64,000 nucleotides of DNA from contig CAVVMJ010000005.1 in the NCBI GenBank assembly GCA_963749445.1, forward strand, positions 98,915 through 162,914, read 5' to 3'. The position numbers and the translations under genes were made by a program. This document shows, piece after piece, positions 18,245-64,000 of the stretch (position 1 is the first letter of the stretch; every line of letters starts with the position of its first letter). The notes under the pieces were generated by a model. The model made no database searches, had not been told where the DNA came from, and was given only the letters and a program-made list of their open reading frames with translations. Source of the stretch: an uncultured bacterium (GTDB taxonomy: Bacteria; Patescibacteriota; Doudnabacteria; UBA920).

Positions 18245-19672
18245 TCATCTGCCGCTCGTAGATGCTACTGGCGACATCTTCTCCTTGCCAGGAGAAGAGG
18301 GAAACACGGATAAGGATTGCTGGCCGATGTCTGTTCTATAATGCATACCGTCAAAGTTTATAAGATTTACAGCGGCGTAAGCTTTGTTGAGGGCGGATTG
18401 TAAATCATCAGCAATTGCCGTGACTCCGAGGACTCGGCCGCCGTTTGTTACCAACCTCTCCCGGCCTTCGGCCGCCCTCCCCTCATCCCTCGACTCCGCT
18501 CGGGGTGACCTTGAGCTTGCCGAAAGGTCATGAGGGGAGGGGCGGGGAGAGGTTGCAGTACCGGCGTGGAAAATTACAATATCACCAAGCTTTTCCGCTT
18601 GTTCTATGCCGGTTATTGGCAAACCTTTTTCGTATTTGCCCGGGTAGCCGCCGCTGGCTAAGACAATACAGCAGGCAAAGCCCGGGTGCCATTCAATTTT
18701 AATTTTATCTAAAGTTCCTTCCACACTAGCCATCAGGACATCAAAAAGATCGGTTTTCATCAGTCTCATCAAACTTTGCATTTCCGGGTCACCGAAACGG
18801 CAGTTAAATTCAATAACCTTGGGGCCGTCATCCGTTAAAATTAATCCGGGATATAACAGTCCCATAAATGGCGAACTTTCTTTTTTTAGGGCTTTGAGGA
18901 TGGGGGTGACTATGGTATTGGCAACGGTATTTAAAAGATTTTGATTTACCCACGGCACTGGAGCAATAGTGCCCATGCCGCCGGTGTTCGGGCCCTTTCC
19001 GTCGTCAAAAATAGGCTTATGATCTTGCGCCGAAGGCAAGAGTTGGAAGTTTTTGCCGTCGCAAAAAGCGTGGATGGAAAATTCCGGTCCTTGTAAAAAT
19101 TCTTCTATGACTACGTCGTTGCCTGCGTCGCCGAATACTTTTTCCACCATCGCGGCCTTTAGCGCGGCCTTAGCTTCGGTCATTGTCTTGCATACTGTTA
19201 CGCCTTTTCCCAAAGCAAGGCCCGAAGCTTTAATAACTATGGGGGCTTTTATGGTTTCCAGATATTTAAGCGCGTGGTCGTAATTGCTAAAGACTTGGAA
19301 GCGCGCGGTCGGGATATTGGCTTTTTGCATCAAGTCTTTGGCAAAGGCTTTGGAAGCTTCTATGCGCGCCGCCGCCTGGGTCGGCCCCCAAATCAGCAGT
19401 TTGCGTTTTTTAAATTTATTGACAATCCCCAAAGCCAGCGGGTCATCTTGTCCCACTACCGTCAAATCAATTTTCTTTTTTTCCGCAAAATCAGCTAAGG
19501 CATCAATATCTGTGGCTTTGATGTCGATGTTCTCGGCGACTTGCGCCGTGCCGCCGTTGCCCGGGGCCACATAAATTTTCCCGACTTTGGGTGACTGTTT
19601 TAGTTTCCACGCCAAAGCGTGCTCCCGCCCGCCGCCGCCGATGATTAAGATTTTAGATAAGTTTTGCCTCAT
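18245..19672 (-). CDS. purD: phosphoribosylamine-glycine ligase carrying an in-frame 34-aa palindromic-element insertion
   Basis: KILIIGGGGREHALAWKL... 475 aa versus about 425 typical. The extra segment SPRPSPHDLSASSRSPRAESRDEGRAAEGRERL sits just before the conserved VTNGGRVLGV. Confidence 0.85.
   Translation of the reverse strand: MRQNLSKILIIGGGGREHALAWKLKQSPKVGKIYVAPGNGGTAQVAENIDIKATDIDALADFAEKKKIDLTVVGQDDPLALGIVNKFKKRKLLIWGPTQAAARIEASKAFAKDLMQKANIPTARFQVFSNYDHALKYLETIKAPIVIKASGLALGKGVTVCKTMTEAKAALKAAMVEKVFGDAGNDVVIEEFLQGPEFSIHAFCDGKNFQLLPSAQDHKPIFDDGKGPNTGGMGTIAPVPWVNQNLLNTVANTIVTPILKALKKESSPFMGLLYPGLILTDDGPKVIEFNCRFGDPEMQSLMRLMKTDLFDVLMASVEGTLDKIKIEWHPGFACCIVLASGGYPGKYEKGLPITGIEQAEKLGDIVIFHAGTATSPRPSPHDLSASSRSPRAESRDEGRAAEGRERLVTNGGRVLGVTAIADDLQSALNKAYAAVNLINFDGMHYRTDIGQQSLSVFPSSPGKEKMSPVASTSGR
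18452..18555. repeat. GC-rich palindromic insertion element inside purD (family B core CCCTCGACTCCGCTCGGGG)
   Basis: caacctctccc...gggagaggttg terminal inverted repeats, an internal tgacc...ggtca hairpin and the core ccctcgactccgctcgggg. About 104 bp. Confidence 0.7.
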
Positions 19673-23341: not shown

Positions 23342-23891
23342 GAAACTGTATTTACTAACTACTAATCCTTACTAATATACGAATGTGAATTTCTTGGAAT
23401 TAGTATATTAGTAATTAATTAGTAGTTAGTAAAGTTAGTAATCTTTAAACGTTGACCGGTACGCCCTTAATGCGTCCGCGATTTTTAAATTTACAATGAG
23501 TTTTTGATGTTTATCGGTGATTGTTAAAGTAGATTTGGTGGTGGTTTTGCCGATTTTTGCAAAAATATTTTTTCCGGCGGAGCCGGATCCCGCTCCGCGG
23601 GACATCAGGTTTTCAAAAATAGCGATGTTCTGCGACGCCACGCTGACCAAAATTCGCCCTTGGCTTTCGCTAAATAAAGCCTGATAATTTTCCTGCCAGG
23701 AGCCGGGTACATCGGCCAAGCTGATTTCTGCGCCAAGGCCGCCGCCCATAAGTTTTTTAGTTAGCGCTACAATCAGGCCGCCGCCGTTAACGCTTATGGC
23801 CGAGGCGATTAGGTTTTGTCGGTTGGCGTTGAATAAAGTTTTATATAATAAATAGTTTTTGGCGGCGTTGACTTTTGGAACTCCAACCACC

Positions 23892-23945
23892 CCGTCCGCC
23901 TTCGGCGTCCACCCCTCCTTAAAAAGGAGGGGAGACTGCATTCTG
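23892..23945. repeat. palindromic insertion element (family A: ACCACCCCGTCC...CCCCTCCTTAAAAAGGAGGGG) inside purL C-terminal region
   Basis: Encodes MQSPLLFKEGWTPKADGVV in frame. Confidence 0.65.
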
Positions 23946-24900
23946 AAGTATTCGCTCCCGCCCATTTCATCATCAGTCGTTCCCAATATATAGAGCGAAT
24001 CGCCCGGCAGTTTGGCGTCCAGCGAAACGGTTTTGGCCGCGTCCGGCACCACGCCGATGGCGGAAATCAAAAGCGTGGGCGGAATGGAAATTTTTAGCGG
24101 CTTTCCATCATCGGAAAATCCTTTAAAGTCGTTATACATACTGTCTTTGCCGGAAATAAACGGCGTGCCGTACGCGGTGGCGACGTCGTAGCAGGCGCGC
24201 GCCGCTTGTTTTAACTGCCATAAACGGCCGGGGTCTTCCGGACTGCACCAGCAAAAATTATCCAATAAAGCCAAATAATCAATGTCAGCTCCGGCGGCCA
24301 CGGCCGCGCGAACGGCCGAATCAATGGCAGAAGCGGCCATATTGTAGGGGTTAAGCTCGCTGTAAGACGGATGCAAGCCGTAAGAAAGCACCACGCCTTT
24401 TGGGGAAGTTAAAAGCGGGCGGGTAACCGTGGCCTGGGCGCTAATTTTGCCGCGGCCTTGCAGCGGTTTTAATACAGAGCCGCCTTGGACTTCGTGGTCG
24501 TATTGGGTGTTGATAAAATTGGTGGAGGCTAGGTTGGGGCGGGATAATAATTTAAAAATTAAAGATTGAAGATTGAAGGATTTGGGGATTGCCGATGATC
24601 TTGCATTTTGTGATTTGGGTTTTTGTGTTTTTTGATTTTTAATCGGTCGGCCGTTGTGTAAAAATTCCAAATCCATATCCAGCACAGTCTGTTTTTTGAA
24701 TTTAATCAGGCATCTGCCGCTATCGGTAAATTTACCGATGACCGTAGTCTCTACCCCTCTTTTTTTCATCAGCTGTTGTAATTTTGCCAAACGCTTTGGC
24801 GGCACGGCCAAAACCATTCGCTCCTGGGATTCGGAAATCCAAATTTGCCAGGGCGCGAGGCCGGGATATTTTAAGCGGAACTTTATCCAGAAAGACTTCG

Positions 24901-24951
24901 CAGCCGCCCCTCGACTTCGCTCGGGACGACCCTGTCGGGTCGTTTGCAGCT
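24901..24951. repeat. family B element (CCCCTCGACTTCGCTCGGG + CGACCCTGTCGGGTCG hairpin) inside purL middle segment
   Basis: Encodes NDPTGSSRAKSRGGC in frame. Confidence 0.65.
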
Positions 24952-26280
24952 TGGGCCATTTCGCCGACCGCTGATGATAATCCTCCGGCGCCACAGTCAG
25001 TTATTGAAGAATATAAATCTAAGTTCCGCGCTTCTTTAGCCAGTGCGTCGCTGAATTTTTTTTGCGTTATCGGGTCGCCAATCTGCACGGCCGTGGCCGG
25101 GCTGTTTTTGTCCAAGTCCTTCAGAAGCAAAAGTCGCGCCGTGGATGCCGTCGGCCCCGACTCTGCCGCCCACCATCACAATCAAATCCCCGGCTTTGGT
25201 TTGTTTAATGTGGCCGGATTTGCCGTTAATCAGCCGGGGAATTAATCCCACGGTGCCGGCAAACACCAAAGGTTTGCCGCGGAAGCGCGGGTCAAAATAT
25301 ACAAATCCGGAATTGGTGGGAATGCCGCTTTGGTTGCCGCCTGAGTTAATGCCGGAAATTACGCCGTCCATTATGCGGCGGGAGGAGAGCATCTTGTTGT
25401 CCGATGTAGCGGCATGCCTTGGCATGCCGTCATCATTAGGCACGCCACGGCGTGCCTCTACAGGGTTAGATCGATATAATTCTGTTTTATCGTTCGGGTC
25501 GGCAAAGCAAAAACCGTAAGTATTAATAATCGGTTTTGCCCCCAAACCAAACCCTAAACAGTCGCGGTTGACTCCCACAATTCCGGTAATGGCGCCGCCG
25601 AACGGGTCAAGCGCCGAAGGCGTGTTATGGGTCTCCACTTTGTGGGTGATTAAATAATCGCGGTCAAAAATTATTCCGCCAGCGTTGTCGGTAAATACGG
25701 AGACGCAGAAGTCGTTACGTTTTTTTTGTTGCCGGATGGTTTCCGTGGCCCCCTTAATGTAGGTTTTATAGATGCCTTTTTCCAGCTCGTCCATCGGGTC
25801 GGCAAAAATGGTGTGTTTGCAGTGTTCCGTCCAGGTTTGCGCCAAAGTTTCCAGTTCCACGTCCGTGGGCTTCCGGTTTAGTTTGTTAAAATATTCGCGG
25901 ATGACTTTTAATTCTTCCAGCCCCAACGCCAGCGGCCCGCGCCTTTTCGCAGAAACTGCGAGTGCAGCCGAAGCAGTCCCGTTATTTTTTGATGGGATTG
26001 CTTCGTCGGATGCACTCCTCGCAATTTCCGGTTTTTTTTGGCGTTCCTCTATCCCCAATTTCCCCAGCTTTATCAGCTCCTCATCCGCAATATTCAAATC
26101 CACCCTGCTGACTTTGGCCGAGGCGGCAAGCTTGACTTTGGGCGCGACCATATCCATGCCGCCGTCTTTTTTAAAATCATCAAAACTTTTTACTGCCGCG
26201 CGTTGGATGAGCGGGTTGTAAAGGCTATTGGCGATTTTTTGGATATCCGCGGCTTGCCCGCCGAAGCCTTGGCGTAGGCG

Positions 26281-26337
26281 GGGGCTTCCCCTCCTTTTTA
26301 AGGAGGGGTGTCCTGCGGAGCGGGACGGGGTGGTTGG
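26281..26337. repeat. family A element in opposite orientation inside purL N-terminal region
   Basis: Encodes TPTTPSRSAGHPSLKRRGSP in frame. ccccTCCTTTTTAAGGAgggg palindrome. Confidence 0.65.
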
Positions 26338-26757
26338 AGTATAAAAAGAAATAAAAAAGACCTGAGACGAATAAACATCCTGCCCCGGCTTGAATTTTAT
26401 TTTCGCCCCGTCTTGCAAAGTTTCTTTGGCCGTGCGGCCAATGTTGTCCGTGACCCCGGGCAGAAAACCGATTTCCACGGCAAAATTAAAATTCCGCGGC
26501 GCCTTTAAAGCGGTGTCCGCGGATTCTGCAAGAGGATTGGCCAACAGCGTTTTGGCTTTTTGGATTTGTTTTTGGTTTAGGCGCGCGTCAATCGTATAGC
26601 AGTCCGCCAGATACACCGCCCCCAGTTTGTTTTTTAGCCCCAGCGCCTCAAACTGCTTTTTTTTGACTTTGGCCCGGGCGTCGGGGATGGTGGACTTTAC
26701 GTAAATGCGATGCATTGAGAGATTTGAGATTTATGATTTTAGATTTCAGATTGGAAT

Positions 26758-29284: not shown

Positions 29285-29926
29285 ATGAGGATTTTTGTGG
29301 GGATTCCGTTGTCGGAGGAGTTGAGGGGGCGGGTTTTGGAGTGGGAGGGACAACATCGATTCGACCTCTCTGCCCTTCGGCTGCACTCGGGGCATCTCCC
29401 CTCGCCAGGGGAGAAGGGGAACACCGTACGATGGGTTGAGCCCAAGAATTTGCATGTGACGCTGGTGCCGCCCCTCGACTTCGCTCGGGGCCTGCGGCCG
29501 TCTGATATCGAGGGGATCATCAAAAAGTTGGAAACAGTTAAGCATCAGCCTTTTGAAATAAGGTTTGATAAGATATCGTTCGGGCCGAATGTTAGGGAGC
29601 CGAGGATGGTTTGGGCAAGCGGAAACGCGGGAGAGGAAATTAAGAAATTGAAGAAATTGATTGAAATTGCGTTAAGCGGCATTGTTGATAATTCGCGCGG
29701 CCGCGCGTTTTATCAACACGTTACGCTGGCGAGGATAAAAAACCCTCATCCGCCGCTCGATGCATCGCGGCACCTTCTCCCAGGGGGAGAAGGCGGGAAC
29801 ATCCAAGCGGTTGACTGGCGGATGAAAGTAGAAAAGTTTGTGCTTTATGAGTCGCATTTGTTGCCGCAGGGGGCGGATTACGAGGTTTTGGCCGAGTTTT
29901 TGCTACAGCCTTTTACTAAATGCTAA
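29285..29926 (+). CDS. thpR: 2H-phosphoesterase family RNA 2',3'-cyclic phosphodiesterase / 2'-5' RNA ligase (LigT/ThpR) with three in-frame element insertions
   Basis: MRIFVGIPL... Two H-x-T-x motifs, LHVTL and QHVTL. 213 aa versus about 175-190 typical. Confidence 0.7.
   Translation: MRIFVGIPLSEELRGRVLEWEGQHRFDLSALRLHSGHLPSPGEKGNTVRWVEPKNLHVTLVPPLDFARGLRPSDIEGIIKKLETVKHQPFEIRFDKISFGPNVREPRMVWASGNAGEEIKKLKKLIEIALSGIVDNSRGRAFYQHVTLARIKNPHPPLDASRHLLPGGEGGNIQAVDWRMKVEKFVLYESHLLPQGADYEVLAEFLLQPFTKC
29393..29420. repeat. family C palindromic element (TCTCCCCTCGCCAGGGGAGAAGGGG) in thpR
   Basis: Encodes HLPSPGEKGN in frame. Confidence 0.55.
29471..29490. repeat. family B core CCCCTCGACTTCGCTCGGGG in thpR
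   Basis: Encodes PPLDFARG in frame. Confidence 0.6.
29774..29793. repeat. family C element (CTTCTCCCAGGGGGAGAAGG) in thpR
   Basis: Encodes LLPGGEGG in frame. Confidence 0.55.
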
Positions 29927-37646: not shown

Positions 37647-39170
37647 ATGGGACTGCCGTCAAAAAAGCGCATAGTTGGGAATCAATGCGGGTCAATCATG
37701 ATCTTCAATATTTTGATTATTTTTATTTTTTCCACCGTGCTCATCGGCATTTTGAGCGTGGCCACTTCCCAGCTGCGACTTTTGCGCAGCAGCATCTACC
37801 GCGAGTCGGCATTTGACATCGCCGAAGCCGGGGTGAATTATTACCAGTGGCATTTGGCCCATTTTCAGACCGATTACGCCGACGGCAGCGGCCAGACCGG
37901 CTGCAACCCCTGCGGCCCCTATGTCCACAACTATACCGACACGGACAACGAAACCGTTATCGGCAAATTCAGCCTGATGATTACCCCGTCTTTGCTCGGC
38001 TCCACCATGGTGACCATCCAGTCCACGGGCTACACCCTGGCCGCCCCAGCTACCCGGCGCGTCCTGACCGTGCAGTACGGTATTCCCAGCCTGGCGCAGT
38101 ATTCGTTTTTAAGCAATTCCGACGCCTGGATCGGGGGCACGGAAGCGGTGCACGGCCAGTTCCGCAACAACGGCGGTTTGCGTTTTGACGGCACGGGCGA
38201 TTCCTGGATTTCTTCGGCTAAAAATAACATTCCGCCCGGGCCGGGCTACCAGTGCAGTCCGTTTTTCGGATGCTGCCCGGTGCTGACCAAGCCCGGCATT
38301 TGGGGATCCGCGCCGGGTTCTACCCAGTCATTTTGGCAGATGGGCCAGCCCAATTTCAACTTTACCGGCATTACCGCCGATTTGAACACTTTGGAAAATG
38401 ACGCCAAAGCCGGCGGGATTTATCTGGCCCCTTCCAATAGCCAGGGCGATTCGTTGGTGTTTAAAAACGACGGCACCCTGGATATTTATAAAGTCACTTC
38501 GCGCAAGGCCAATCCCACGGGGTATGACACCAATTGCAGCTACAGCGCCTCTTTATGCGCCAGTTCCTGCGGCAGCGCCTGCCTAAATTCCCTCCAGTGC
38601 GAGGCGCGCAACGACCAACTGGACTATAACGCCCGTACGTTCCAAAGCAATCAGGCTATCCCGGGCAACGGCGTCATTTACGTAGAAGATAATGCTTGGG
38701 TGGAGGGCACGGTCAAGGGCCGCGCGCTGGTGGTGGCGGCCAAGCTGGGCGCCGCTTTGTCTTCCATGCCCAACATCATGATTCCCAATAATATAGTCTA
38801 CAATGATTTAACCGCCAACAGCACGGACATTTTGGGCCTGCTGTCGCAAAAGGACATTGTTATTACCTACGCGGCGCCGCAGACTTTGACCATTGACGCG
38901 GCCCTGATCGCGCAAAACGGCGTGGCCAACTTTTTTGACTTCAGCGGCGGCTGCAGCAGCGTGGCCGCGGAAAAGACCACCCTGAACATTTTTGGCTCCA
39001 TGGCCAGTTACGGCATTTGGACCTGGACTTGGACCTGCGCCAACGGCAAATATTCCGGCTACCTCAACACCAACACCACTTACGACGGCCGGCTGCTGTA
39101 TTCGCCGCCGCCGGATTTTCCGGTTGACTCCGCCGCCGGTTACCAGCAATTAAATTGGAAGAGCAATTAA
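37647..39170 (+). CDS. PilX-like minor pilin / pilus-associated secreted protein (alternative start MIFNIL at 37698)
   Basis: Hydrophobic N-terminal helix IIFIFSTVLIGILSVATSQLRLL. 507 aa, Cys-rich. Confidence 0.45.
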   Translation: MGLPSKKRIVGNQCGSIMIFNILIIFIFSTVLIGILSVATSQLRLLRSSIYRESAFDIAEAGVNYYQWHLAHFQTDYADGSGQTGCNPCGPYVHNYTDTDNETVIGKFSLMITPSLLGSTMVTIQSTGYTLAAPATRRVLTVQYGIPSLAQYSFLSNSDAWIGGTEAVHGQFRNNGGLRFDGTGDSWISSAKNNIPPGPGYQCSPFFGCCPVLTKPGIWGSAPGSTQSFWQMGQPNFNFTGITADLNTLENDAKAGGIYLAPSNSQGDSLVFKNDGTLDIYKVTSRKANPTGYDTNCSYSASLCASSCGSACLNSLQCEARNDQLDYNARTFQSNQAIPGNGVIYVEDNAWVEGTVKGRALVVAAKLGAALSSMPNIMIPNNIVYNDLTANSTDILGLLSQKDIVITYAAPQTLTIDAALIAQNGVANFFDFSGGCSSVAAEKTTLNIFGSMASYGIWTWTWTCANGKYSGYLNTNTTYDGRLLYSPPPDFPVDSAAGYQQLNWKSN

Positions 39171-39371
39171 TTTAATTGACAAAATTGACATAATTGAGCA
39201 AAATTGAACATAATTTGATTTGGCAATTATGTCAATTATTCCCGCCTGCCTACGCCAATTATCAATCTCAGATAAATACTAACAATCAGCTGGCTAATCA
39301 ACATCATTAAAATATAACAAACGGCATCGGCGGGCAGGTAAATTATGGCAATTATGTCAATAATCCTTATG

Positions 39372-39782
39372 TTCAAAAAAACTTTTGCATTTTTGTCCAA
39401 GGCGTTGATAATATCGGCAATGTTTTTATTGCCGTTCGGCGTTTCGGCTATGATTTTGGTGCCCAAAGGAATGGTGCCGAATCCGCCGCCGCTGCAGCCG
39501 CATTCGCCTTTGGTCAAACCCAATATTTCCCAAAACGTCAATACGCCGCCCCAGCCAGCGCCGTACGGCCAGACTGCGACTTCGGCGTCCGCCTCCTTGC
39601 CGCCGCCTGCCACAACCAGCCAGTCAGCCGTTGCGCCGCCGCCCGATAATACGGTGGCCGCGGATGAGCAAAGCGCCGATACCACGGCTTTATGGGCCAA
39701 ACCCTGGTTGTGGGCGCTGGTTTTGGTTGTCGGAAGTTCGTTGGGGTATTGGCTGGTTATGAAGGATAGGGATAAGAATTAA
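39372..39782 (+). CDS. Pro-rich membrane-anchored hypothetical protein (track ORF start 39345 lies inside a repeat motif)
   Basis: MFKKTFAFLSKALIISAMFLLPFGVSA... C-terminal TM helix WLWALVLVVGSSLGYWLV. Confidence 0.4.
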   Translation, partial: FKKTFAFLSKALIISAMFLLPFGVSAMILVPKGMVPNPPPLQPHSPLVKPNISQNVNTPPQPAPYGQTATSASASLPPPATTSQSAVAPPPDNTVAADEQSADTTALWAKPWLWALVLVVGSSLGYWLVMKDRDKN

Positions 39783-39875
39783 ATCATTGACATAATTGCC
39801 ATAATTTAAATAATTGCCATAAATATTGGGCCTATTATTTATGTTCAATTATGTCAATTATGTCAATAACATCAT

Positions 39876-41154
39876 GACTCAATCCGCCGCGGGGGATAGC
39901 GAACTGTCATCAATCTACAAACTGCCGCGCGCCACCTGCCCTTACTGCGGCCACAATCCCAGCCCACATTTTTTTACCTGGTACGTGGAAAGCCTGGACA
40001 TTTTATTGGCGCCTTTGCGCCGGTTAATTTTTTACAACCCCGCATCGCGTTTGGTAAGGCGGTGGTTAAAATCGCGGCAGTTTGGCTGGCGTTTTGCCTC
40101 GCTGCTGTTAAAACTGCGGGTGTTCCAAAAGCAGTCTGACATATCGGTTTGCAAAGTCCGCCGCGCCCAGGTCTTGTGGGAAGAAGCGCAAAAACGCGGC
40201 ATCAAATTTTTCGGCCTAAAATTGTTCGGCAAAAATTTGGATATGTACCTGGCCGAGAAAAGCGGCAAAAGGTTGTTTATTGACGGCTTGCCGCGGCCGC
40301 AAAATTCTGACGGCGGCATGCTGGACGTAATGGATGACAAGCTGCTGTTAAAAAATAAATTGGCAGCTGCCGGTTTGCCCGTGCCAGCCGGCGGGAGCGC
40401 GACCGGAATGCCATCAGCTGTTAAAATTTTCCGCTTGATTGATAAACCAGTTATCGTTAAGCCGCGTACCGGCAGCCGTGGGAGACACACCACCACTTTT
40501 GTCCGGACGGAAGAAGATTTGCGGCAGGCCGTCAAAGTCGCCAAGCAGCTTTGCCATTGGGTAATGGTGGAGGAGCAGCTGTTTGGCCCGGTTTACCGTG
40601 CCACGATTATTGATGGCCCCTCGACTTCGCCCCTTCGGCCTCGAGCTCAGGGCCGAGAGGTCGGGACAAGCAAGCTTGCCGGAGTTTTACGCGGCGACCC
40701 GCCGCAGGTAACTGGGGATGGCAAACATACTATCGCGCAGCTGATAAATATCAAAAACTCGCAGCCGCACCCGAGGGTTAAGGACATAGTTATGGACTCA
40801 TCAGCAGAGTTATTTTTGCAGCGCCAGCAATTATTCGCCGACACGATTTTGCCAGCCGGCCAGATTGTACCGATATCCGAAAAAATCGGCCTCAATTCCG
40901 GAGGGTCGTCCAGCGAAGATTTTGACATTTGCCATCCGGACAATGCGGAGCTGTTTTTGCGCGCCGCCGAGGTTTTGGGCGACCCGCTGGTGGGTTTTGA
41001 TTTTATTATTCCCGACATAGCAAAATCGTGGAAAAGCCAAAAATGCGGATTCATTGAAGCCAACTCCCTGCCCTTCATCAATCTCCATCACGATCCACTG
41101 AAAGGAGCCCCCCGCAACGCCGCCGCCCTGGTTTGGGAGATGATGGGAATGTGA
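39876..41154 (+). CDS. ATP-grasp protein resembling the N-terminal domain of cyanophycin synthetase, with in-frame element insertion
   Basis: VIVKPRTGSRGRHTT, ATIIDG...LAGVLRGDPPQVTGDGKHTIAQLI, ILPAGQIVPISEKIGLNSGGSS and VGFDFIIPDI. Track start 39826 is encoded by repeat motifs. Confidence 0.6.
40617..40666. repeat. family B element (CCCCTCGACTTCGCCCCTTCGGCCTCGAGCTCAGGGCCGAGAGGTCGGG) inside ATP-grasp gene
   Basis: Encodes PSTSPLRPRAQGREVGTS between the conserved IIDG and KLAGVLR. Confidence 0.65.
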
Positions 41155-44268: not shown

Positions 44269-46480
44269 ATGAAACCAAAACCGCCCGGCAGACGCCATAC
44301 GCCTCACTTACATCATCAAACTAAAATTAACCAAACCATTATGGATAAGGTCAAAATCAAAAGGGTAAAAAGGGATAAAAAGAAAGCCACAACAAAAGAA
44401 AAGATTTTGGCCGGTTTGGGCGTGGGCGGAACCCTGATGGGCGGCATTGCGGGAATGCAGGCTAAACCCAGCGCGCAGACGAAACTTGTCAGCATCACCG
44501 GCACCGAGCAGTCCAGCGGCACTTCCAAAATTAAATCCGCAATAAAAAAGCTTTTTGGCGCGACCATTGGAGCGCAGACGGCCAAGGCGGAAGAAAATAC
44601 CACCACAACCCGCACAGTTACAGATCCGGATACTGGTCAAATTACCACTTATTACGACACCACTATTAATGGTATGCCTGTAACGGTTGACCAAAACGGC
44701 ACTACCTGGATAAATCAGGGCAACGGAGCCGAGCAGGTTGACCCGCAGGATTACGGCATAGATCCCAATGCCATACAAACGCAGGCTACCACGTCGTCAG
44801 ATACTTCCGGAACCTCCGGCACAAGCGGCACATCTGGCACATCAGGGACTTCTGGTGACGATGGTTCAAGCGGCACTTCCGGTACATTTCCGGGACTTCT
44901 GGCACATCAGGTGACGGTGGCGGTACAGCGGTGACATGGCGACAGTGGTGACAGCACCACTAATACCGGCCCCACCCTAACCGGCGCGCCAACCTTAAAC
45001 TCCAGCGGCACGGGCATTGATGTGTCCGGTTTGGCATCTAGTGGCGGCAGCAGCGGCATCAGCATTGACGACAGCCAGGTTAACTACAATGTTCCCGGCA
45101 CCTACACCGTAACCATCAACGCTTACGACAGTTCCGGCAACCTGACTTCCCAGACATACCAGGTCACAGTTCCGGCTACATCTGGAACCGCGGTACATCT
45201 GGGACTTCTGGTGAACTCTGGCACTTCCGGTAGTAGCGACGCCACTAATACTGGCCCCACCCTAACCGGCGCACCAACCCTAAACTCTAGTGGCACGGGT
45301 ATTGATGTCTCCGGTTTGGCATCTAGTGGCGGCGGCAGCGGCATCAGCATTGACGACAGCCAGGTTAACTACAATGTTCCCGGCACCTATACCGTAACCA
45401 TCAACGCTTATGACAGTTCCGGCAACCTGACTTCCCAGTCATACCAAGTCACAGTTCCGGCTACCTCAGGTACATCAGGTACCATCTGGAACCAGTCGGC
45501 ACTTCTGGTACATCCGGTACTTCTGGTGCCACAACCGGCCCCACCTTAACCGGTTTGCCAACCCTAAATTCCACTGGCACGGGCATTAACGTGTCCGGCT
45601 TGACGTCCTCGGGTGGCAGCGACAATATCAGCATTGACGACAGCCAGGTTAACTACAATGCTCCCGGCACCTATACCGTAACCATCAACGCTTACGACAG
45701 TTCCGGCAACCTGACTTCCCAGACTTATCAGATAACAATTCCGGCTACCTCAGGTACCTCTGGCACATCAGGGACATCCGGAACCAGTGGCACAAGTGGC
45801 ACTTCCGGCACTCTGGAACCAGCGGAACCTCTGTCGATTTAGGAGCCCCTGTTTCCGGCTCTATACCATCCCGACTCCAACAATTCTTACAGCTGGACAG
45901 CCTCGACTGCCACCATTGGCGGCCAGCAATACACTAACCTAAACCTTTCCGCCCTGTCGGACGGCCGGATTATTGCCTACATTAACCGGCTGGCACGGAC
46001 GTGACTTCAGGTTTACACCTTGCGGCATGACCGGGACTTTATATTCCGCCTATAAGTGCTAGCTCCGGAGCCTGGTACCTCCGGCACTATCAGGGACTTC
46101 GGGTACATCGGGCACATCATGTACATTCGGTACTACTGGAACTTCAGGTCATCTGTCATCTCAGGCACTCGTCGCCGTCCGCCACAACCGGCAACGTACC
46201 ACCCGTGGTTACATTGAACAACGGCGTGTATACGGCTTCGGTGACTATCAACGGGCAAACCTATACGGCTACAGGATCCACTTTGGGCGATTTGAACAGT
46301 AATATGCAAAAGTACAATAATCTTACCGGCAATAACCAGCAAGTTTTTGCGGCTTTGGCTCAGGCTTCCGACGCCTACGCGTTGAAGCAATATAACGCGA
46401 CGCAAGCGGGTAAAACCCCGGGCAACGGCGCGCCAATTGATATATCCACCGCTTCCGTGTACGGCTCCGATGAGTTATGA
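44269..46480 (+). pseudogene. large surface protein gene with three tandem ~95-aa Ig-like repeats separated by (SGT)n linkers; reading frame broken at the linker microsatellites
   Basis: Track ORFs 44269..44934, 45022..45549, 45555..45842 and 46205..46480 each encode the same unit TGPTLTGAPTLNSSGTGIDVSGLASSGGSSGISIDDSQVNYNVPGTYTVTINAYDSSGNLTSQTYQVTVPATSGTSGT, in different frames. Confidence 0.5.
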
Positions 46481-49800: not shown

Positions 49801-50033
49801 CGGGCCTGCAAATGCCCGATGACCAAACCGCCGTCCAGGACCAAACCGGCCAACAATCGGCGGGCACCTATGTCGTTAAGAAAGGCGACACCCTGTGGAA
49901 AATCGCCAAAGCCACCACCGGTGACGGCCGCAACTGGCGCAAAATCCTAGCTGTTAATCCAGACTGTTTGAGTACTCCAGGCAACACCCGAACCCTCAAA
50001 GTCGGCGCGGTGCTGGTGATTCCGAAAATCTAA
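46811..50033 (+). CDS. large surface protein with Ig-like (He_PIG/IPT-type) domains and C-terminal LysM; N-terminal repeat region carries frame disruptions (about 47100-47350)
   Basis: Track ORFs 46811..47365 and 47322..50033. Repeat copies (LTFVNNSGGSTSTLKVGDSWTITVTGPNGPVY / LTFTNNTSGDTSDLKVGDNWTITITGPDGPVY) fall in different frames. C-terminal LysM: YVVKKGDTLWKIAKATTGDGRNWRKILAVNP. Confidence 0.55.
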
Positions 50034-50084
50034 GCATTGACATAATTGATCAAAACGGCATTTATGCCGTCCCGAACGGAGTGA

Positions 50085-50128
50085 GGGATCCCTCGACTCC
50101 CCCTCGACAAGCTCGGGGTCGCTCGGGA
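50085..50128. repeat. intergenic family B element (GGGATCCCTCGACTCCCCCTCGACAAGCTCGGGGTCGCTCGGGATG)
   Basis: Same CCCTCGAC / CTCGGGG cores as the intragenic copies. Confidence 0.6.
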
Positions 50129-50216
50129 TGACAGCTATAATAATAAATTATAGTTTGTCAATTATGTCAATGATTTTATGCTATAATAATTAAACTTAAA
50201 AAGTAAACCATACGTC

Positions 50217-54903: not shown

Positions 54904-55945
54904 ATTTGTGGAATTAATTATTTAGACAAAAGCATCGGCTATCGTCTTCGTCACCGGCTTCGCTATGGTTTCGGCGACAAGCCGGCGGATTGTTCGCAAT
55001 AATTTTATTAGCGACGTAGAGCGAGAGAAACTAAATAGCTTGCTATTTAGTTTCCGAGCCGAGGAGCTAATATAGGTTCAATACCTGGCAGCTCTGCTGC
55101 GTATTGATAGCATCTCCTTGGAAATACCTCGGAGCTCTGTTCCGAGGAACCTTTATTACTGATAACTTGGCTACCCGTCTTCGCTTCCGACTTCGCCAAG
55201 GCTACGTCGGACAAGAAAGCTACGGCGGGTTGTTTTTCAGCAAAGCTGAAAAACAAAAAACCGCTCAACAAGCAGGCGGTAAATAATTATAATATAGATT
55301 GTGTCTATATTAAATTCCTGCTCGGGAGTTTGTTGTTTATTTAGTAACCGGACTGACCCCGACATTTGTCGGAGATTACCGTTGCGGCACAGTGCCGGAT
55401 TTTCACCGGGCTTCCCTAAAATAAACATTTGAATTTTTAACGTAATTGGATTCTATACCGGGAGATAAAAGTTGTCAATCCCGCAAAGTCCCCGGATGGG
55501 CGCCATCCGGTGTCGTCATCCGTTGAAAGCCTTGACAGCTTGGTAATGGGCTTAAAACGGTAAAAACTTAAATAAATAACTGTGGATATTTAAGGCTTGG
55601 CCCAAACGTCTAAAATCAGGGCCTTTGACAAAATCTCTTGCAATGTGTTTTGGGTAAAATCGGTCAATTTTTGGGGTTTTTTGTTTCTCTTTCAAATATG
55701 AGGGATTTTACATATGTGTAACATTTAAGTTAAACCGACTATTAAAATAGTTTCATCAAGCCCGAAAAATGCTTGTTGCACGTTTTATGATTCATTTAAT
55801 TGAACGTTGTAAAAATGAATTAAAAATCTTGTGAACAATTTGCTCCAAAATTCAAATATTTTTCCCCTAACTAAAATTTACAAGCAAATTGTTCCATACC
55901 AAATCTTGTCAGATAAATTTTTTTGTTTAACCTGATAAAAAATTG

Positions 55946-56275: not shown

Positions 56276-56294
56276 GCAAATAAAATTCTAAAAA

Positions 56295-59200
56295 GTGGAC
56301 GAGAATTTGAAAGAAAATTTTGATTCGTTCTTAAGCCTCGCGGAAGCGAGCAAGCTAACAGGGTACCACCAGGATTACCTTGGTTTTTTGTGCCGCACCG
56401 GCAAGCTCCAGGGATTTAAAATTGGCAGGAACTGGACGACGACCAAACAAGCCTTGGATGAGTTCATTAAAAACTATAAAAACGGGGTTAGCGAAATCGT
56501 TGATGAAACAGGCAGGAAGATCCCCGTTAAGGTAGAACGCCTAGCCCCTCAAGTTGTCATCGCGGATTTGCCCGCGGGGCAACCTCCAATTGCGGCGGGT
56601 CTTGTTTTTTCGCAGGGCGCAACTCCACAGCCGCAGGAAGTTTTGCCCGCTGCGCTTAATTCCAGTTTAGAGCTTAGGCACCTCCGCAGAGACGTCATTG
56701 ATGAAATTGACAAAAAGGTGCAGAACTTGTCCGCTAGCGTGGAAAAGATTGAAACCCAAACTCAGGAACAGGCGAAACAGTTAGAGGCAAATAAACAACA
56801 AATACTGGCAGTTGTCCCGGTGGCGGAAACGGCGCCGCAAGTACCGTCAACCGCGGCAGCGATAAACAATTTTGCCGAAGAAGACGAGTACGTCAAAAAA
56901 GAACGGCAGCGATTCAGCAACAAGTTTGCTTCCAATTTTGATTTCGGAACCGCGGATATTCACCCGACTACGCCAAGGCTTCGTCGGGCAAGCGCGGAAC
57001 CAGAACGCGGAACATACGCGGATCAATCCAAGTTCGCGCTGGGGAAGGAAAAAGTCAAACAACTTTACGGAAGCTTTACAAAAAAGAGCCGCATAGATTT
57101 TAACCGGGTCGGCGCGTACGCCTTGGTTGCAATAATTTTGGCGCTGTTTATGGGATCGGTGTTCTGGAGAAATTTGTTTAATAATCTGTCCGGCAATCAG
57201 CGGCCGCAGGAAATGAAAATTGTTTACCAGAACAATAATAGCGGCAAGCAGCCAGCGGTAAGCAATCAGCAGCCCGGCGCGGGTCAGGGCGGAACCACCA
57301 TCGTTAACAAAACCGTCAACCAGCTGCTCGGCTTTTCCGACGCGGACTTGTACAGCCTGATAGATAACCGTTTAAACCAATATTTGGCCGAAGGAAGATT
57401 CAAAGGACCCAAAGGGGACCAGGGGCTGCCGGGGCTGCCGGGCGGAGCCACCTACGTAGCGTCAAACCCCGCGACCGGCTTTTCCGGCGGCAGCATTGGC
57501 GGGACAACCTATCTTTCTTCCCAGGATTTTGCCACAAATAACATTACGGTTAACATCAGCCTTACGGACAACGGCACGGCGGTTTTTAACGGGTACGCGA
57601 CTTTTAACGGGAACACAAACTTAAGCGGCACTACGACCATTGCGAATTTGAACGTTGCCAATATTAATCCGAATTTTACCCAGGGCAGCGTGGTGTTCCA
57701 GGGATTAAACGGGCTGGCGCAGGACAACGCGAATTTTTATTGGGACAGCGTAAATCATCGCCTTGGCATAGGCACCACCACCCCGGAATTCGCTTTGGAT
57801 GTTAATGGCGTCGTGAACGCGCAGGCCTTGTACGTTAACGGCACGCCGTATATCGGCAGCCAGTGGATTTCCACCAGCACGGGAATTTATTTTGCTTCCG
57901 GCAATGTGGGTATTGGCACGACTTCGGCTTCAAGCACGATGCTAACTGTGGCGGGCGACACATCGGTATTCGGCAATTTGGCGGTGGCCGGGACATCGTC
58001 GCTGGCTTCGGCAATTGTTGGCAACCTCACAGTTACGGGCACATCAACACTTGATAGGACGTATACGATAGAATTGGCCGTATCGGACTTATCAACGCTG
58101 GCTACAACTTCAGTAACCAGTTTGGCGGTATCGGGAATCTCGTCACTCGCGACCACCACCATCAGCAACCTTACTTTAACCCAGCCGCTGTCTTTGTCGT
58201 CAGGGGGCTTAGGGTTTGATTCGTCGGCTATTCAAAAGGGCGGGCTGTTGGCCGGAACGGGCAACGGAAGTTTTGGCATCCAGCCGGTCGGCAGCGACGG
58301 CTTGTGCTTGCTGGCTTCTTCCACCGCGCCGTCGGGAATGGCCTGGACTGATTGCGCCGTGGCGGCCAATGCCATTACTTCGTTAAACGGTCTGACCAAT
58401 CCGGTGCAGACTTTTGCCACGGGCAGCGACATCAACATCGGTTTGAATATAACCTCCAGCGGATCCACTCACACTTTTACGCCGACTTTTACCGGCACCT
58501 TGGCCGCCAATCGCTTAAACAGCAACGTGGTGCAGGGGATTACGAATGACACAAACATTACCGGCTCAATTTTAAACCAGGTTTTGACTTTGGGCTGGAA
58601 CGGGCAACTTTCCGCGGCGCGCGGCGGCACTGGCACCAACACTTTGGCTTCCTTGACCGTCGGCAGCAACTTAAACATCAGCGGAGGACAGAATGTCCTT
58701 ATCGGCACTTCCACCCAGATTACGTTATCAAACAATCCGTCCTTTACTTCTATCACCGCCACTGCTTCTTCTTCCTTGGGCAATGCCACGGCCACGGCTT
58801 TTTCCGCCACGACCTTTAACGGCAACACCCTGACTGCCGGCTCCGGTACTCTGACTTTGAATAACAACACTTTGTCTTTGCAGGGCGGCAACACTACACT
58901 GGTTGGCATCAATTCCATCACAAGTTCAACGATAGCCACCTCCACCGTTGGCACTTCCACCATCTCCGGCTTTTTGGCCTTAAACTCCACCACCACCAAT
59001 TCCAACATCAGCGGTTCAACCGTCAACAACGTCACCATCCAGGGCAACAGCAATACCTTAACCCTGCTGGGTACTTCTTCCATTGACCAATCCGTCACCA
59101 CCACCTCCACTCCGACCTTTGCCGGCCTCACCGTCAACGGCCCCGCCTCGGCACAATCTTTGATGGTGACGGGCAACTTAACCGCCACGGGTTCGACTAC

Positions 59201-62200
59201 GCTCGCCGCCTTGACGGCCGGCACGTTGGCCGTAACAGGTTCGACTACGCTCACTGTCTTAAATACGACCGGCGCCGTAACCTTTGCCTCTCCCACTACC
59301 ATCATCAACACCGTTACTTATCTCTGGCCGTCTATCCAGGGCGCGGCCAATACTTTTTTGATGGATAACGGTTCAGGAACGTTATCCTGGTCTGCCGCTT
59401 CCACCACCCTGTCCGGTTACGCCTGGATGCTGGGCGGCAACACCTTAACAGCTACCGGCACCTTTGGCACGCTCTCCAACAATGACTTAAACATCATTAC
59501 CAACTCCACCACTAGGATGACCATCCTCTCCGGCGGCAACGTCGGCATCGGCTCGTCCGCCCCAGCTTCCCTGCTGGATGTTTTTGGGACGGCCCAACTC
59601 CGAGGCGCGTCAAACCAAATTGGATTGTATGTCAATTCGTCAGGGAATGTTGGGGTGGGGACGACTTCTCCGGTTGCCCTGTTCAGCGTCAGCGGCAATG
59701 AATTCATCGCCGGATCTTCCACCATAACCAACCTTAACCAAGCCCTGCCCGTGCGTTCTACCGCGGGCGGCGCCCTGTTCAACGGCGCCGTTGCTTTGGG
59801 CTCTTCCGATGTCACCGGCATCCTGCCTATCCTTAACGGCGGCACCGGAGCTTCCACTCTGGCCGGAGCCAACATCGTCACGGCCAACGCCTCAGCCGGC
59901 CAGGTCCCTTACTTTACCGCCCCGACCACCCAAGCCGGCTCTGCCAACTTCCTTTGGAACAATACCAGCAACCTGCTGACCGTCAACGGCACCATTAACG
60001 CCACCACCTCCAACTTTACCAACCTGAACGCTTCCTCCACGGTTTTGACCAACGCCACGACCACGGGCCAATCGGTTCTTTTGGGACAAACCAACGGCAA
60101 GCTGCTGGCTTTAGACCAAAACGGAATCATCATCTCCACTTCCACCGCCTACCAGACCGCCTTGAGCAATCCCGATACCGGCACGGGAGCCTCGCCGCAA
60201 ATCGCTTATTGGTCAAGCGCGACCGGACTGACGGGCGCGTCCGGCTTCCTATGGGACAACTCAAATACCAGAATGGTGGTCAACGGCACGATCAACGCCA
60301 GCAGCACCAACTTTACCAATGCCACCACCAGCCAACTGTTTGTCACCGGTTCTACTAACGGCAAATTAGCCGCTTTGGACGCTAATGGAATGCTCATCGG
60401 TACTTCCACCGCTTACCAAGTGGCCGGCTCTTACCTTACCACCATCGGCAGCGGCTCTTCCTCCACCATCCCTTATTTCACGGCTACGGCCAACACTTTG
60501 CAGGGGTCTAACAACTTATCCTTCAACGGTTCAAATTTAGTTTTGAACGGAACGATTTACGCCACTTCCTCCAACTTTACCAACGCCACTACATCCCAAT
60601 TATTCGTAACGGGACAGACGGGTAAGTTGGCCGCGCTTGACGCCAACGGGATGCTGATAGCGACTTCCACCAGCTATCAGACCGCCCTGACCAATCCCGA
60701 TACCGGCACGGGAGCCTCGCCGCAAATCGCTTATTGGTCAAGCGCGACCGGACTGACGGGCGCGTCCGGCTTCCTTTGGGACAACTCAAATACCAGAATG
60801 GTGGTCAACGGCACCATCAACGCCACCTCCTCCAACTTCACCAACTTAAACGCTTCCTCCACCGTCTTAACCAACTCTACCACCACAAACCAGTCCGTCT
60901 TCTCCGCCATTACCGGCCCCACCTTCCTGGCCTTAGACTCCAACCATATCCTAATGGCCACTTCCACCCCGGTGTTAACGGTTACCGGCTCCGGTTCCCT
61001 CACTTCCACCGGCGGCACCTCCCCGAATATCGCCTTGGTCACCCTGGCTAACAACGCCGTCCTCTTTGGCCAAGGCAGCGCCACCATCGGCACTTCCACC
61101 AACTTTTCCTGGCTTAACGGCCAAAACCTCTTTAGCGTCAACGGCACCATCAACGCCACCTCCTCGCTGTTCACCAACGCCACTTCCAGCAACCTGGCCG
61201 CCACCTCCTTAACCTCCGCCCTGCCGGTCAGGAGCACCACCGCCGGCTACCTCTACAACGGCGCGATTAACCTTAGCTCCGGCTCCTCTGACATTACTGG
61301 CACTCTGGCCATCGGCAGCGGCGGCACCGGCGCCACCACTCTGGCCGGCGCCAACATCGTCACGGCCAACGCCTCAGCCGGCCAGGTCCCCTTACTTTAC
61401 CGCCCCGACCACCCAAGCCGGCAGTGCCAACTTCCTTTGGAACAATACTTCCAACCTGTTAACCATCAACGGCACCATCAACGCCAGCACCTCCAACTTT
61501 ACCAACCTGAACGCCTCCTCCACGGTTTTGACCAACGCGACAACGACAGGCCAGCAGTTCATTCTGGGGCAGACTAACGGGAAACTATTGGCCCTTGACC
61601 AAAACGGCATGGTCATTTCCACTTCTACCGCCTACATCACCACCGCCAACGTCTCCGGCGCCTCGCCCCAGGTGGCCGTGTTTGCCGGAGCCAATACGGT
61701 TAACGGATACAGCGGCTTCCTTTGGGACAACTCAAATACCAGAATGGTGGTCAACGGCACCATCAACGCCACCTCCTCCAACTTCACCAACTTAAACGCT
61801 TCCTCCACCGTCTTAACCAACTCTACCACCACAAACCAGTCCGTCTTCTCCGCCATTACCGGCCCCACCTTCCTGGCCTTAGACTCCAACCATATCCTAA
61901 TGGCCACTTCCACCCCGGTGTTAACGGTTACCGGCTCCGGTTCCCTCACTTCCACCGGCGGCACCTCCCCGAATATCGCCTTGGTCACCCTGGCTAACAA
62001 CGCCGTCCTCTTTGGCCAAGGCAGCGCGACCATCGGCACTTCCACCAACTTTTCCTGGCTTAACGGCTCTAATCTCTTTAGCGTCAACGGCACCATCAAC
62101 GCCACCTCCTCGCTGTTCACCAACTCTACCACCACAAACCAGTCCGTCTTCTCCGCCATTACCGGCCCCACCTTCCTGGCTTTAGACTCCAACCATATCC

Positions 62201-64000
62201 TAATGGCCACTTCCACCCCGGTCCTGGCAGTTACCGGCTCCGGAAACATCGCCTCTTCAGGAGGGACTTCACCTAACCTTACTTTTACCGGAACACTTCC
62301 GATACTTAACGGCGGAACAGGACAGACAACTCTGGCGGCGGCCAACATCGTCACGGCTAACGCCTCAGCCGGCCAGGTCCCTTACTTTACCGCCCCGACC
62401 ACCCAGTCAGGGAGTGCCAACTTCCTTTGGAACAATACTTCCAACCTGTTAACCATCAACGGCACCATCAACGCCAGCACCTCCAACTTCACCAACTTAA
62501 ACGCCTCCTCCACGGTCTTGACCAACGCCACGACCACGGGCCAATCGGTTCTTTTGGGACAAACCAACGGCAAGCTGCTGGCTTTAGACCAAAACGGAAT
62601 CATCATCTCCACTTCCACCGCCTACCAGACCGCCTTGAGCAATCCCGATACCGGCACGGGAGCCTCGCCGCAAATCGCTTATTGGTCAAGCGCGACCGGA
62701 CTGACGGGCGCGTCCGGCTTCCTATGGGACAACTCAAATACCAGAATGGTGGTCAACGGCACGATCAACGCCACCACCTCCAACTTCACCAACTTAAACG
62801 CTTCCTCCACCGTCTTAACCAACTCTACCACCACAAACCAGTCCGTCTTCTCCGCCATTACCGGCCCCACCTTCCTGGCCTTAGACTCCAACCATATCCT
62901 AATGGCCACTTCCACCCCGGTCCTGGCAGTTACCGGCTCCGGAAACATCGCCTCTTCAGGAGGGACTTCACCTAACCTTACTTTTACCGGAACACTTCCG
63001 ATACTTAACGGCGGAACAGGACAGACAACTTTGGCGGCGGCCAACATCGTCACGGCCAACGCCTCAGCCGGCCAGGTCCCTTACTTTACCGCCCCGACCA
63101 CCCAGTCAGGGAGTGCCAACTTCCTTTGGAACAATACTTCCAACCTGTTAACCATCAACGGCACCATCAACGCCAGCACCTCCAACTTTACCAACCTGAA
63201 CGCCTCCTCCACGGTTTTGACCAACGCCACGACCACGGGCCAATCGGTTCTTTTGGGACAAACCAACGGCAAGCTGCTGGCTTTAGACCAAAACGGAATC
63301 ATCATTTCCACTTCTACCGCCTACATCACCACCGCCAACGTCTCCGGCGCCTCGCCCCAGGTGGCCGTGTTTGCCGGAGCCAATACGGTTAACGGATACA
63401 GCGGCTTCCTTTGGGACAACTCAAATACCAGAATGGTGGTCAACGGCACGATCAACGCCACCACCTCCAACTTTACCAACTTAAACGCTTCCTCCACCGT
63501 CTTAACCAACTCTACCACCACAAACCAGTCCGTCTTCTCCGCCATTACCGGCCCCACCTTCCTGGCCTTAGACTCCAACCATATCCTAATGGCCACTTCC
63601 ACCCCGGTCCTGGCAGTTACCGGCTCCGGTTCCCTCACTTCCACCGGCGGCACCTCCCCGAATATCGCCTTGGTCACCCTGGCTAACAACGCCGTCCTCT
63701 TTGGCCAAGGCAGCGCCACCATCGGCACTTCCACCAACTTTTCCTGGCTTAACGGCTCTAATCTCTTTAGCGTCAACGGCACCATCAACGCCACCTCCTC
63801 GCTGTTCACCAACGCCACTTCCAGCAACCTGGCCGCCACCTCCTTAACCTCCGCCCTGCCGGTCAGGAGCACCACCGCCGGCTACCTCTACAACGGCGCG
63901 ATTAACCTTAGCTCCGGCTCCTCTGACATTACCGGCACTCTGGCCATCGGCAGCGGCGGCACCGGAGCTTCCACTCTGGCCGGAGCCAACATCGTCACGG
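56295..64000 (+). CDS. giant membrane-anchored protein: N-terminal HTH_17/excisionase-like domain, coiled coil, TM helix, short collagen-like GXY stretch, then >2000 aa of Thr/Ser/Asn/Gly-rich fibre-like tandem repeats; runs off window; single-base frame change at about 61386
   Basis: LSLAEASKLTGYHQDYLGFLCRTGKLQGFKIGRNWTTTKQALDEFI, TM helix VGAYALVAIILALFMGSVFW, collagen-like GPKGDQGLPGLPGG. Nested repeats of about 690 bp recur at 59880, 61350, 62340 and 63030. The copy at 61381-61391 reads GGTCCCCTTAC where the others read GGTCCCTTAC. Confidence 0.6.

Follow-up and report, generated by a model that had tools for sequence, protein, structure and literature searches.

The 64,000-nt window analyzed here (positions 98,915 to 162,914 of the forward strand of contig CAVVMJ010000005.1, assembly GCA_963749445.1) comes from an uncultured bacterium of the Patescibacteriota lineage Doudnabacteria and carries a gene for an ATP-grasp protein that is interrupted, in frame, by a short GC-rich stretch made of two nested units, here called S and H. 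The features discussed below are collected in Table 1. A database protein, P0001, is identical to the 437-residue window protein and agrees with the ATG start at 39841. The N-terminal region of the protein is Cys rich, and its nearest solved structures by both sequence and fold are CphA1, CphA2, and GshAB. In a phmmer search against the PDB, it matched the CphA1 chains 7lgn and 7lg5 with an E value of about 1e-23, showing that its G domain is homologous to that of CphA, and CphA1 and CphA2 were also the top Foldseek matches of its structural model (E value of about 1e-23). The protein shares this homologous ATP-grasp G domain with CphA1 but has neither the full N domain and Mur-ligase-like M domain architecture nor a score at the level of the NCBIfam equivalog: the cyanophycin synthetase profile matched only in its ATP-grasp part (profile positions about 208 to 471 of about 865, or 210 to 471 of 871 for the match with an E value of 1e-47), with 160 bits, far below the cutoff of 850 to 877. 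From these comparisons, the protein is a stand-alone enzyme resembling the G domain of CphA and not a cyanophycin synthetase.

Table 1. Features of the window, with positions counted from its first letter, and the corresponding site in orthologous loci
Feature	Position or locus	Strand	Remarks
Host ATP-grasp gene	39841..41154	+	Open reading frame from ATG, 437 aa; alternative TTG start at 39826
Whole in-frame insert	40618..40671	+	54 nt, 18 codons, PSTSPLRPRAQGREVGTS, 70% GC
S, 5' part CCCTCGACTTCGC	40618..40630	+	Joins 40661-40671 without a break in orthologues L006/L007
Module H CCCTTCGGCCTCGAGCTCAGGGCCGAGAGG	40631..40660	+	30-nt imperfect palindrome, between S bases 13 and 14
S, 3' part TCGGGACAAGC	40661..40671	+	Codon-level comparison with orthologues
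Predicted peptide across the element			...IIDGPSTSPLRPR... in the ATP-grasp protein
Empty site	L128		ATA ATA GAC GGA CAT TTG GCG
Empty site	L130		ATC ATC AAC GGA AAA TTA GCC
Filled site, short form	L006, L007		ATT GGC GGC CCC TCG ACT TCG CTC GGG ACA AGC AAG CTT GCC
Composite palindrome, ~104 nt	18452..18555		S-like unit 18487-18504 and inverted partner at center; within PurD
S copy GCCCCTCGACTTCGCTCGGGAC (22-mer), then small hairpin	24906..24927	+	N-terminal part of the downstream half of split minus-strand purL
S copy GCCCCTCGACTTCGCTCGGG (20-mer)	29470..29489	+	Read as PLDFARG in LigT-like gene 29285-29926
Intergenic S copy, 'GAT...ATGACA' subtype	50087..50133	+	Interrupted S 50090-50127; module CCCCCTCGACAAGCTCGGGG 50099-50118
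AT-rich inverted-repeat pairs	39339-39364 / 39783-39808; 39170-39203 / 39839-39872; 39775-39815 / 50142-50182		TTGACATAATTG-like words

An in-frame insert made of two units

In an alignment with 120 homologues, 113 had no residues at the site, six had 8 extra residues, and the window protein alone had 18; with 21 proteins added, the census of 141 family members gave 133 without an insert, six with the short form, and one with the long form. The open reading frame (ORF) reads ...RATIIDG-PSTSPLRPRAQGREVGTS-KLAGVLRGDPP... around the insert, where the insert-less homologues of the alignment read ...RATVIN-GKLAGVLRGD..., and the phmmer alignment to the CphA1 chains leaves an 18-residue gap precisely opposite PSTSPLRPRAQGREVGTS. 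A preliminary description of this DNA had proposed that a member of a repeat family sits in frame within a CphA-like ATP-grasp gene, a proposal that both the large majority of empty homologues and the gap opposite the CphA structures bear out. A native insertion of the same length in homologues, the observation that would speak against it, was looked for in all 141 proteins, and no homologue has 18 residues here. The description had the site right, but its span of 40617 to 40666 ends 5 nt before the last inserted codon does, and the region that matches CphA is the G (ATP-grasp) domain instead of the N domain that it named. The 49-mer that it quoted occurs a single time, at 40617 to 40665 on the plus strand, with 0 chance matches expected. 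The GC content is raised modestly at the insert, to 0.60 to 0.68 compared to roughly 0.45 to 0.58 over the rest of the gene.

The same description also took the insert for a single element; it is indeed a repeat element, but it consists of two units, one nested in the other. We name the outer 24-nt unit S (CCCTCGACTTCGC|TCGGGACAAGC) and the inner 30-nt hairpin module H (CCCTTCGGCCTCGAGCTCAGGGCCGAGAGG). The uninterrupted 24-mer of S, CCCTCGACTTCGCTCGGGACAAGC, is present in the orthologues L006 and L007, and the window sequence equals their filled sequence plus the 30 nt of H placed between TCGC and TCGG. Six orthologues have S at the same codon, all six without H, and among the 141 family proteins, H is found at this site solely in the window gene. 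Since S is common to six orthologues, the outer 24 nt are not private to the window genome. The short form encodes 8 residues of the GPST[SA]L[GR][TA]S type (GPSTSLGTS and variants), and the copies at 24906 and 29470 are the same 20- to 22-mer as the 5' half of the insert. All six reading frames of S are free of stops, as are five of the six of H. Paired by hand, H forms a stem of 10 positions, one of them mismatched, around a loop of 10 nt; its predicted fold has nine pairs and one bulge (-7.5 kcal/mol; z of -1.4). S folds weakly (-1.6 kcal/mol; z of +1.0), with only about three to five pairs at its ends and an irregular interior of 12 nt. The insert overlaps no terminator-like site. Its 54-nt size, the open frame, and the lack of any such signature led us to reject an intein, a self-splicing intron, and a programmed frameshift.

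The AlphaFold (AF2) model built from the 120-sequence alignment had a mean predicted local distance difference test score (pLDDT) of 89.5 and a predicted template modeling score (pTM) of 0.86. The insert corresponds to residues 260 to 277, and residues 263 to 274, with a pLDDT of <50, are the sole internal stretch of the model with values this low. In the model, the inserted loop joins strands 251-257 and 278-286, that is, it forms the turn of a beta-hairpin. Because of this placement and the confident model, and because none of the 46 invariant residues of the 120-sequence alignment A1 is lost, the element would extend a surface turn and leave the fold and the conserved residues untouched. 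The insert is thus modeled as a disordered extension of a surface loop that the enzyme tolerates. Drift in L003 and L005 has left the inserted codons encoding unrelated residues (GPGTNLREY and GPSTALGAY), which argues against selection on the insert at the protein level.

The ATP-grasp family comprises 834 to 1,085 homologues, and those with names are labelled Patescibacteria. In the sampled orthologues, a neighborhood of pilin-like genes, a small ORF, and the ATP-grasp gene is kept, and most of them continue downstream with a MOFRL glycerate kinase followed by a 2-hydroxyacid dehydrogenase. In the window, the small ORF upstream of the ATP-grasp gene is bordered by AT-rich inverted repeats composed of TTGACATAATTG-like words, which appear again near 50150. 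The copy at 39787 to 39814, directly upstream of the gene, matches a sigma-70-like promoter at 11 of 12 positions, and these repeats may be a reused promoter cassette.

Copies of S and H in the window and in public sequences

Within the window, CCCTCGACTTCGCTCGGG matches positions 24908, 29472, and 18487 with at most one mismatch (17 of 18 at 18487), compared to 0.06 matches expected. The reading frame differs between copies (PSTSLG in the ATP-grasp gene versus PLDFARG in the LigT-like gene), so S is a repeat at the level of DNA and not a protein motif. In the minus-strand PurD gene (18248 to 19672), a composite palindrome adds about 28 to 34 amino acids in frame between FHAGTA and VTNGGRVL; residues 374 to 407 of the protein stand where the PDB homologue has about 6. 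This palindrome folds far better than shuffled sequence (-34.8 kcal/mol; z of -4.9), and one of its arms holds a GGCCTTCGGCC mini-hairpin. The interrupted S within 50063 to 50133 is intergenic, following an ORF that ends at 50033, and the 20-nt module CCCCCTCGACAAGCTCGGGG is nested in it near the same internal position (the apex) that H occupies in the S of the ATP-grasp gene. In the LigT-like gene, the conserved HxTLxFLG region is covered by the S copy and reads HVTLVPPLDFARGL. The length is the same as in the aligned PDB homologues, on which ground this copy was rejected as an insertion; it seems to replace the native sequence at its site and adds none.

The S copy near 24906 lies in purL, which is split into two ORFs in different frames (23438 to 26715, minus strand; junction near 24995 to 25038). 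The upstream ORF aligns to PurL residues about 32 to 223 and the downstream ORF from about residue 292 onward, and S with its small hairpin falls within roughly the first 30 codons of the latter. The split may reflect a frameshift associated with the element, decay to a pseudogene, or a gene that is split by nature. Another family of repeats, CCGACTWCGCCAAGGCTWCGKCGGRCAAG, is present in three copies in the window compared to 0 expected (26253-26281 on the minus strand and 55187-55215 and 56964-56992 on the plus strand), one of them in the upstream purL ORF and one in a stop-to-stop open frame of 1,761 codons (56292 to 61577). In ORFs, the repeat is read as PTTPRLRRAS / RLRQGFGGQ, and its ends resemble the ends of S. 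Large tandem and dispersed coding repeats occupy very long ORFs at 44800 to 46150 and 59800 to 64000, with a Gly/Thr/Ser-rich 9-nt periodicity and, at 59.8 to 64.0 kb, repeats of about 300 nt; these ORFs probably encode surface proteins.

Beyond the window, we searched representative genomes for the 18-mer core of S and metagenomes for the 22-nt core of H. The core of S gave at least 136 copies in at least 120 genome loci, and the hosts among the matches listed include Acidobacteria, Verrucomicrobia, sphingomonad isolates, Planctomycetes, Ignavibacteria, Omnitrophota, Bacteroidales, and Patescibacteria. Flanks of S that are typical of particular lineages can be seen (..GAT-S-ATGACA; S-ACGAACGG; S with GCAAGC), and inverted pairs of S that make long hairpins are frequent among the matches listed. 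The core of H was found at least 121 times, at 120 or more metagenome loci, with the full 30-mer in nearly all of those listed; about 90% of the listed copies lie outside any long ORF, and the typical place is the tip of another hairpin. The S-H-S arrangement with the junctions of the window (..CTCGACTTCGC + H + TCG[G/A]GACA..) recurs at the unrelated loci L134, L205, and L242, and in similar form at L137, and S and H occur together on several contigs. In-frame copies also lie in ORFs read by eye, with no family search, as other housekeeping genes: H in an apparent methionyl-tRNA formyltransferase Fmt (same frame, PLRPRAQGRE), P-type ATPase, and UvrD-like helicase, and S in an apparent LeuRS, XerC-like recombinase, and PurA.

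At L133 (3915 to 4022) and at more than 40 other metagenome loci (e.g., L141, L147, L172, and L192), H tips a long hairpin. This conserved intergenic hairpin has perfect 22-bp arms, GTCGTTTCAAAATTGGGTAATA ... TATTACCCAATTTTGAAACGAC, and no Rfam match, and it may represent a structured RNA that lacks annotation or a further family of repeats. The 18-mer of S was also seen in 40 viral or proviral contigs of IMG/VR (L252 to L291), some with three or four copies, and H was seen in one (L251). Such contigs could be vehicles between hosts or could carry host-derived sequence. Rfam searches at the gathering threshold in six loci with S and 11 loci with H returned tRNAs only, so that neither unit corresponds there to a described RNA family. 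In the full-text library searched, no paper was found that contains 14- to 16-mers of S or related units, and keyword searches on palindromic or in-frame repeats in the candidate phyla radiation (CPR) found no description in Patescibacteria.

Origin of the insert and its history at one codon

We consider it likely that the insert is a short GC-rich palindromic repeat, comparable to the palindromic repeats known as REPs and to the Rickettsia palindromic elements (RPE), which lies in frame within a gene, is tolerated in a surface loop, and consists of S with H nested inside it. The 24-nt S, with the 30-nt H at its middle, or apex, would have become coding; it is in frame and free of stops. Parsimony, with six short forms and one long form, suggests that S entered the codon first and that the window lineage acquired H afterward. 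Both units would have spread through a copy-and-insert process favoring hairpin apices or existing copies, and translation would run through the element to give an 18-residue extension of the loop. Most likely, the insert is passenger DNA that is neutral or mildly deleterious, and not an adaptation of the enzyme.

Several observations weigh against this interpretation. We identified neither a transposase in the window, whose ORFs were not screened for Y1 transposases, nor terminal inverted repeats, and the unambiguous junctions between filled and empty sites (GGC|CCCTCG...CAAGC|AAG versus GGN|AAA or CAT) show no target-site duplication. S, H, the composite, and the 86-nt region are no more stable than shuffled controls (z of -1.4 to +1.0 for S, H, and the composite), and since the hairpin energies do not beat these controls, a structural role as RNA or DNA lacks support from thermodynamics alone. 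H has one copy only in the window, so that it would be multicopy in this genome only if further copies lie outside the window. The order of events could also have been the reverse, with the long form first and H lost in the others, because the S-H-S composite exists as a unit elsewhere as well. Finally, the 24 nt of S and the sequence around them show 100% identity between the window and L006/L007, although the proteins are only about 60% identical.

This last point is part of a wider discrepancy. In bootstrapped neighbor-joining trees with the insert masked, the seven insert-bearing proteins were monophyletic in 0 of 100 replicates. P0017 and P0022 group together with 97% support and are placed among insert-less relatives, being nearest to the insert-less P0015 (73% identity) and to P0051/P0057 (67%), compared to 54 to 57% identity with the window clade. 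The insert-less P0003 pairs with the insert-bearing P0002 in 89% of replicates; at this codon, P0002 has another variant of the family, CCTTCGACTGCGCTCAGGGCGAGC, and the P0003 site resembles an ordinary empty site and not a deletion scar. With H removed, the longest exact DNA match of the window gene is 45 nt to L007 and 38 nt to L006, over S and its flanks, and once the S-containing matches to L004, L006, and L007 are set aside, no exact match to an orthologue exceeds 26 nt. Identity at third codon positions peaks at 1.0 over S compared to 0.3 to 0.6 elsewhere in the gene. The neutral decay of one old insertion fits this poorly, because the insert-bearing genes are not one clade and the S region is the most conserved DNA in it. 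Both the non-clade pattern and the identity would be explained by insertion recurring at a favored site, by gene conversion from other copies, or by transfer of a short patch through recombination. It is therefore possible, if rather unlikely, that S, perhaps as S-H-S, entered this exact codon repeatedly, or that gene conversion from copies elsewhere in the genome overwrote the one at this locus again and again, with the site tracking the element family instead of the history of the gene. The trees behind this idea are simple distance trees with about 380 columns and long branches, with 32% support for the window clade, and the same pattern could arise from several exact losses or from a short patch of recombination. 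The empty sites show no conserved target motif, and no other S copies that could act as donors for conversion were seen in the roughly 75 kb examined at the orthologous loci L002, L003, L005, and L007.

The nesting of modules at apices, which builds larger palindromes such as the 104-nt one in PurD and that at 50087 to 50133, could also suggest that the palindromes grew locally through replication or repair errors at hairpins, by template switching or snap-back synthesis, in which case the likeness between copies would reflect a shared mutational grammar. The resemblance of H to a slightly expanded S-type unit and the lack of both a target-site duplication and a transposase would agree with this. 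We nevertheless regard such growth as improbable, since local error processes would not reproduce the exact 18-, 22-, and 30-mers with conserved loops that recur at hundreds of unrelated loci across phyla, and the 30-mer of H has no template elsewhere in the window. A selected loop extension, for instance a binding or regulatory loop with the DNA repeat coincidental or co-opted, would account for the intact ORF and for the persistence of the short form in six orthologues of two clades with unusually conserved DNA. However, any insert at all is found in just 7 of the 141 family members, the peptide is of low complexity and predicted to be disordered, its residues have drifted as described above, and the same DNA encodes other peptides elsewhere, which makes such a function very unlikely. 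That the long form is known from a single assembly (P0001, one contig) might raise the suspicion of an assembly or sequencing artefact in the 30-nt part, but this is scarcely credible for an exact copy of a unit found in at least 120 independent metagenome contigs, which keeps the reading frame and has the same junctions as the unrelated contigs L134, L205, and L242.

Relation to known repeats and implications

RPE were reportedly described by Ogata et al. in 2000 as selfish elements inserted in frame in protein-coding genes and translated where the fold tolerates them. The insert in the ATP-grasp gene resembles them in this respect, with 54 nt, no stop, a loop between strands, and the invariant residues kept. 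It differs in size and family: RPE-1 elements are about 100 to 150 bp long and confined to Rickettsia, while S and H are 24 and 30 nt long, nested, and present in many phyla, with a Patescibacteria-type host here, and on description, they are set apart from RPE. MITEs (miniature inverted-repeat transposable elements) have terminal inverted repeats, a target-site duplication, and a parent insertion sequence. Like MITEs and Correia elements, S and H are small, nonautonomous, hairpin capable, and dispersed, but there is no duplicated flank, the ends of S are not mutual inverted repeats, and no parent insertion sequence was found in the window. In the REPIN-RAYT system, copying of the hairpin repeats is attributed to a hairpin-recognizing, domesticated single-strand transposase, and an enzyme of this kind would fit insertion at hairpin apices. 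S and H lack the GTAG tag, however, and no RAYT gene was identified in the window, with the limit on Y1 transposases given above.

The closest comparison is with the GTAG- and CGTC-tagged REPs reported from more than 80 species of eight phyla (Di Nocera, De Gregorio and Rocco 2013, PMC3733652). According to that paper, these repeats are GC rich, 20 to 40 bp long, and mostly intergenic, with some in frame in housekeeping genes, where they encode about 20 to 30 amino acids, and some nested inside other palindromes; the CGTC type has no dedicated transposase, and some RPEs of Rickettsia are equated with CGTC families (PMC3733652). S and H agree with the repeats so described in being short, GC-rich, multicopy, and palindromic, with some copies in frame and some nested. 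There, the CGTC tag is an unpaired terminal tetranucleotide with TGTC and CCTC as allowed variants, and the CGTC families have a perfect stem of 8 to 9 bp starting with A-T pairs, a loop of 4 to 5 nt, and a short CCA-like tail (PMC3733652). A tag of this type is present in S, whose minus strand reads GCT-TGTC-CCGAGCGAAGTCGAGGG; many S copies in other phyla read TGTCAT-CCCGAGCGAAGTCGAGGG-ATC or CGTC-CCGAGCG..., and a widespread subtype reads TGTC-AT-CCC...GGG-AT. S has no 8- to 9-bp stem, no 4- to 5-nt loop, no A-T start, and no CCA tail as described there, and because the stem, loop, and tail are lacking, we do not file it as a CGTC REP. H carries neither a GTAG nor a CGTC tag, and Patescibacteria are absent from the hosts named in the passages of PMC3733652 consulted. 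The many copies typical of REP-like repeats in general are seen for S in the window, where the three further copies are joined by the interrupted one at 50090, and for H, single in the window, in the metagenomes.

The insert in the ATP-grasp gene is a new example, in a CPR genome, of an event that is already known, the entry of palindromic repeats into genes without breaking them. A broader idea, which we regard as doubtful, is that S and H might represent a previously undescribed pan-bacterial system of 24- to 30-nt self-nesting hairpin modules that are copied into hairpin apices, including those of their own copies, that are able to reenter or overwrite the same codon across lineages, and that are kept exact across phyla by a conserved host or mobile enzyme. 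If this were true, the ATP-grasp site, with the short form in two unrelated clades, the long form in the window, and an identical patch of 45 nt, would be a natural record of homing or conversion.

For annotation, the finding means that such elements add low-complexity loops to conserved enzymes, as in the ATP-grasp protein and PurD, with one at the break of the split purL and others in translation and repair genes of other metagenomic genomes. Recognizing them prevents their misreading as functional motifs and can account for unusual insertions or frameshifts of CPR proteins. The exact conservation of 18 to 30 nt across distant phyla, the nesting at apices, and the fact that one codon has apparently been occupied repeatedly all suggest that some mechanism copies these units, and with its filled, empty, short, and long alleles, this locus offers material for the study of that mechanism.

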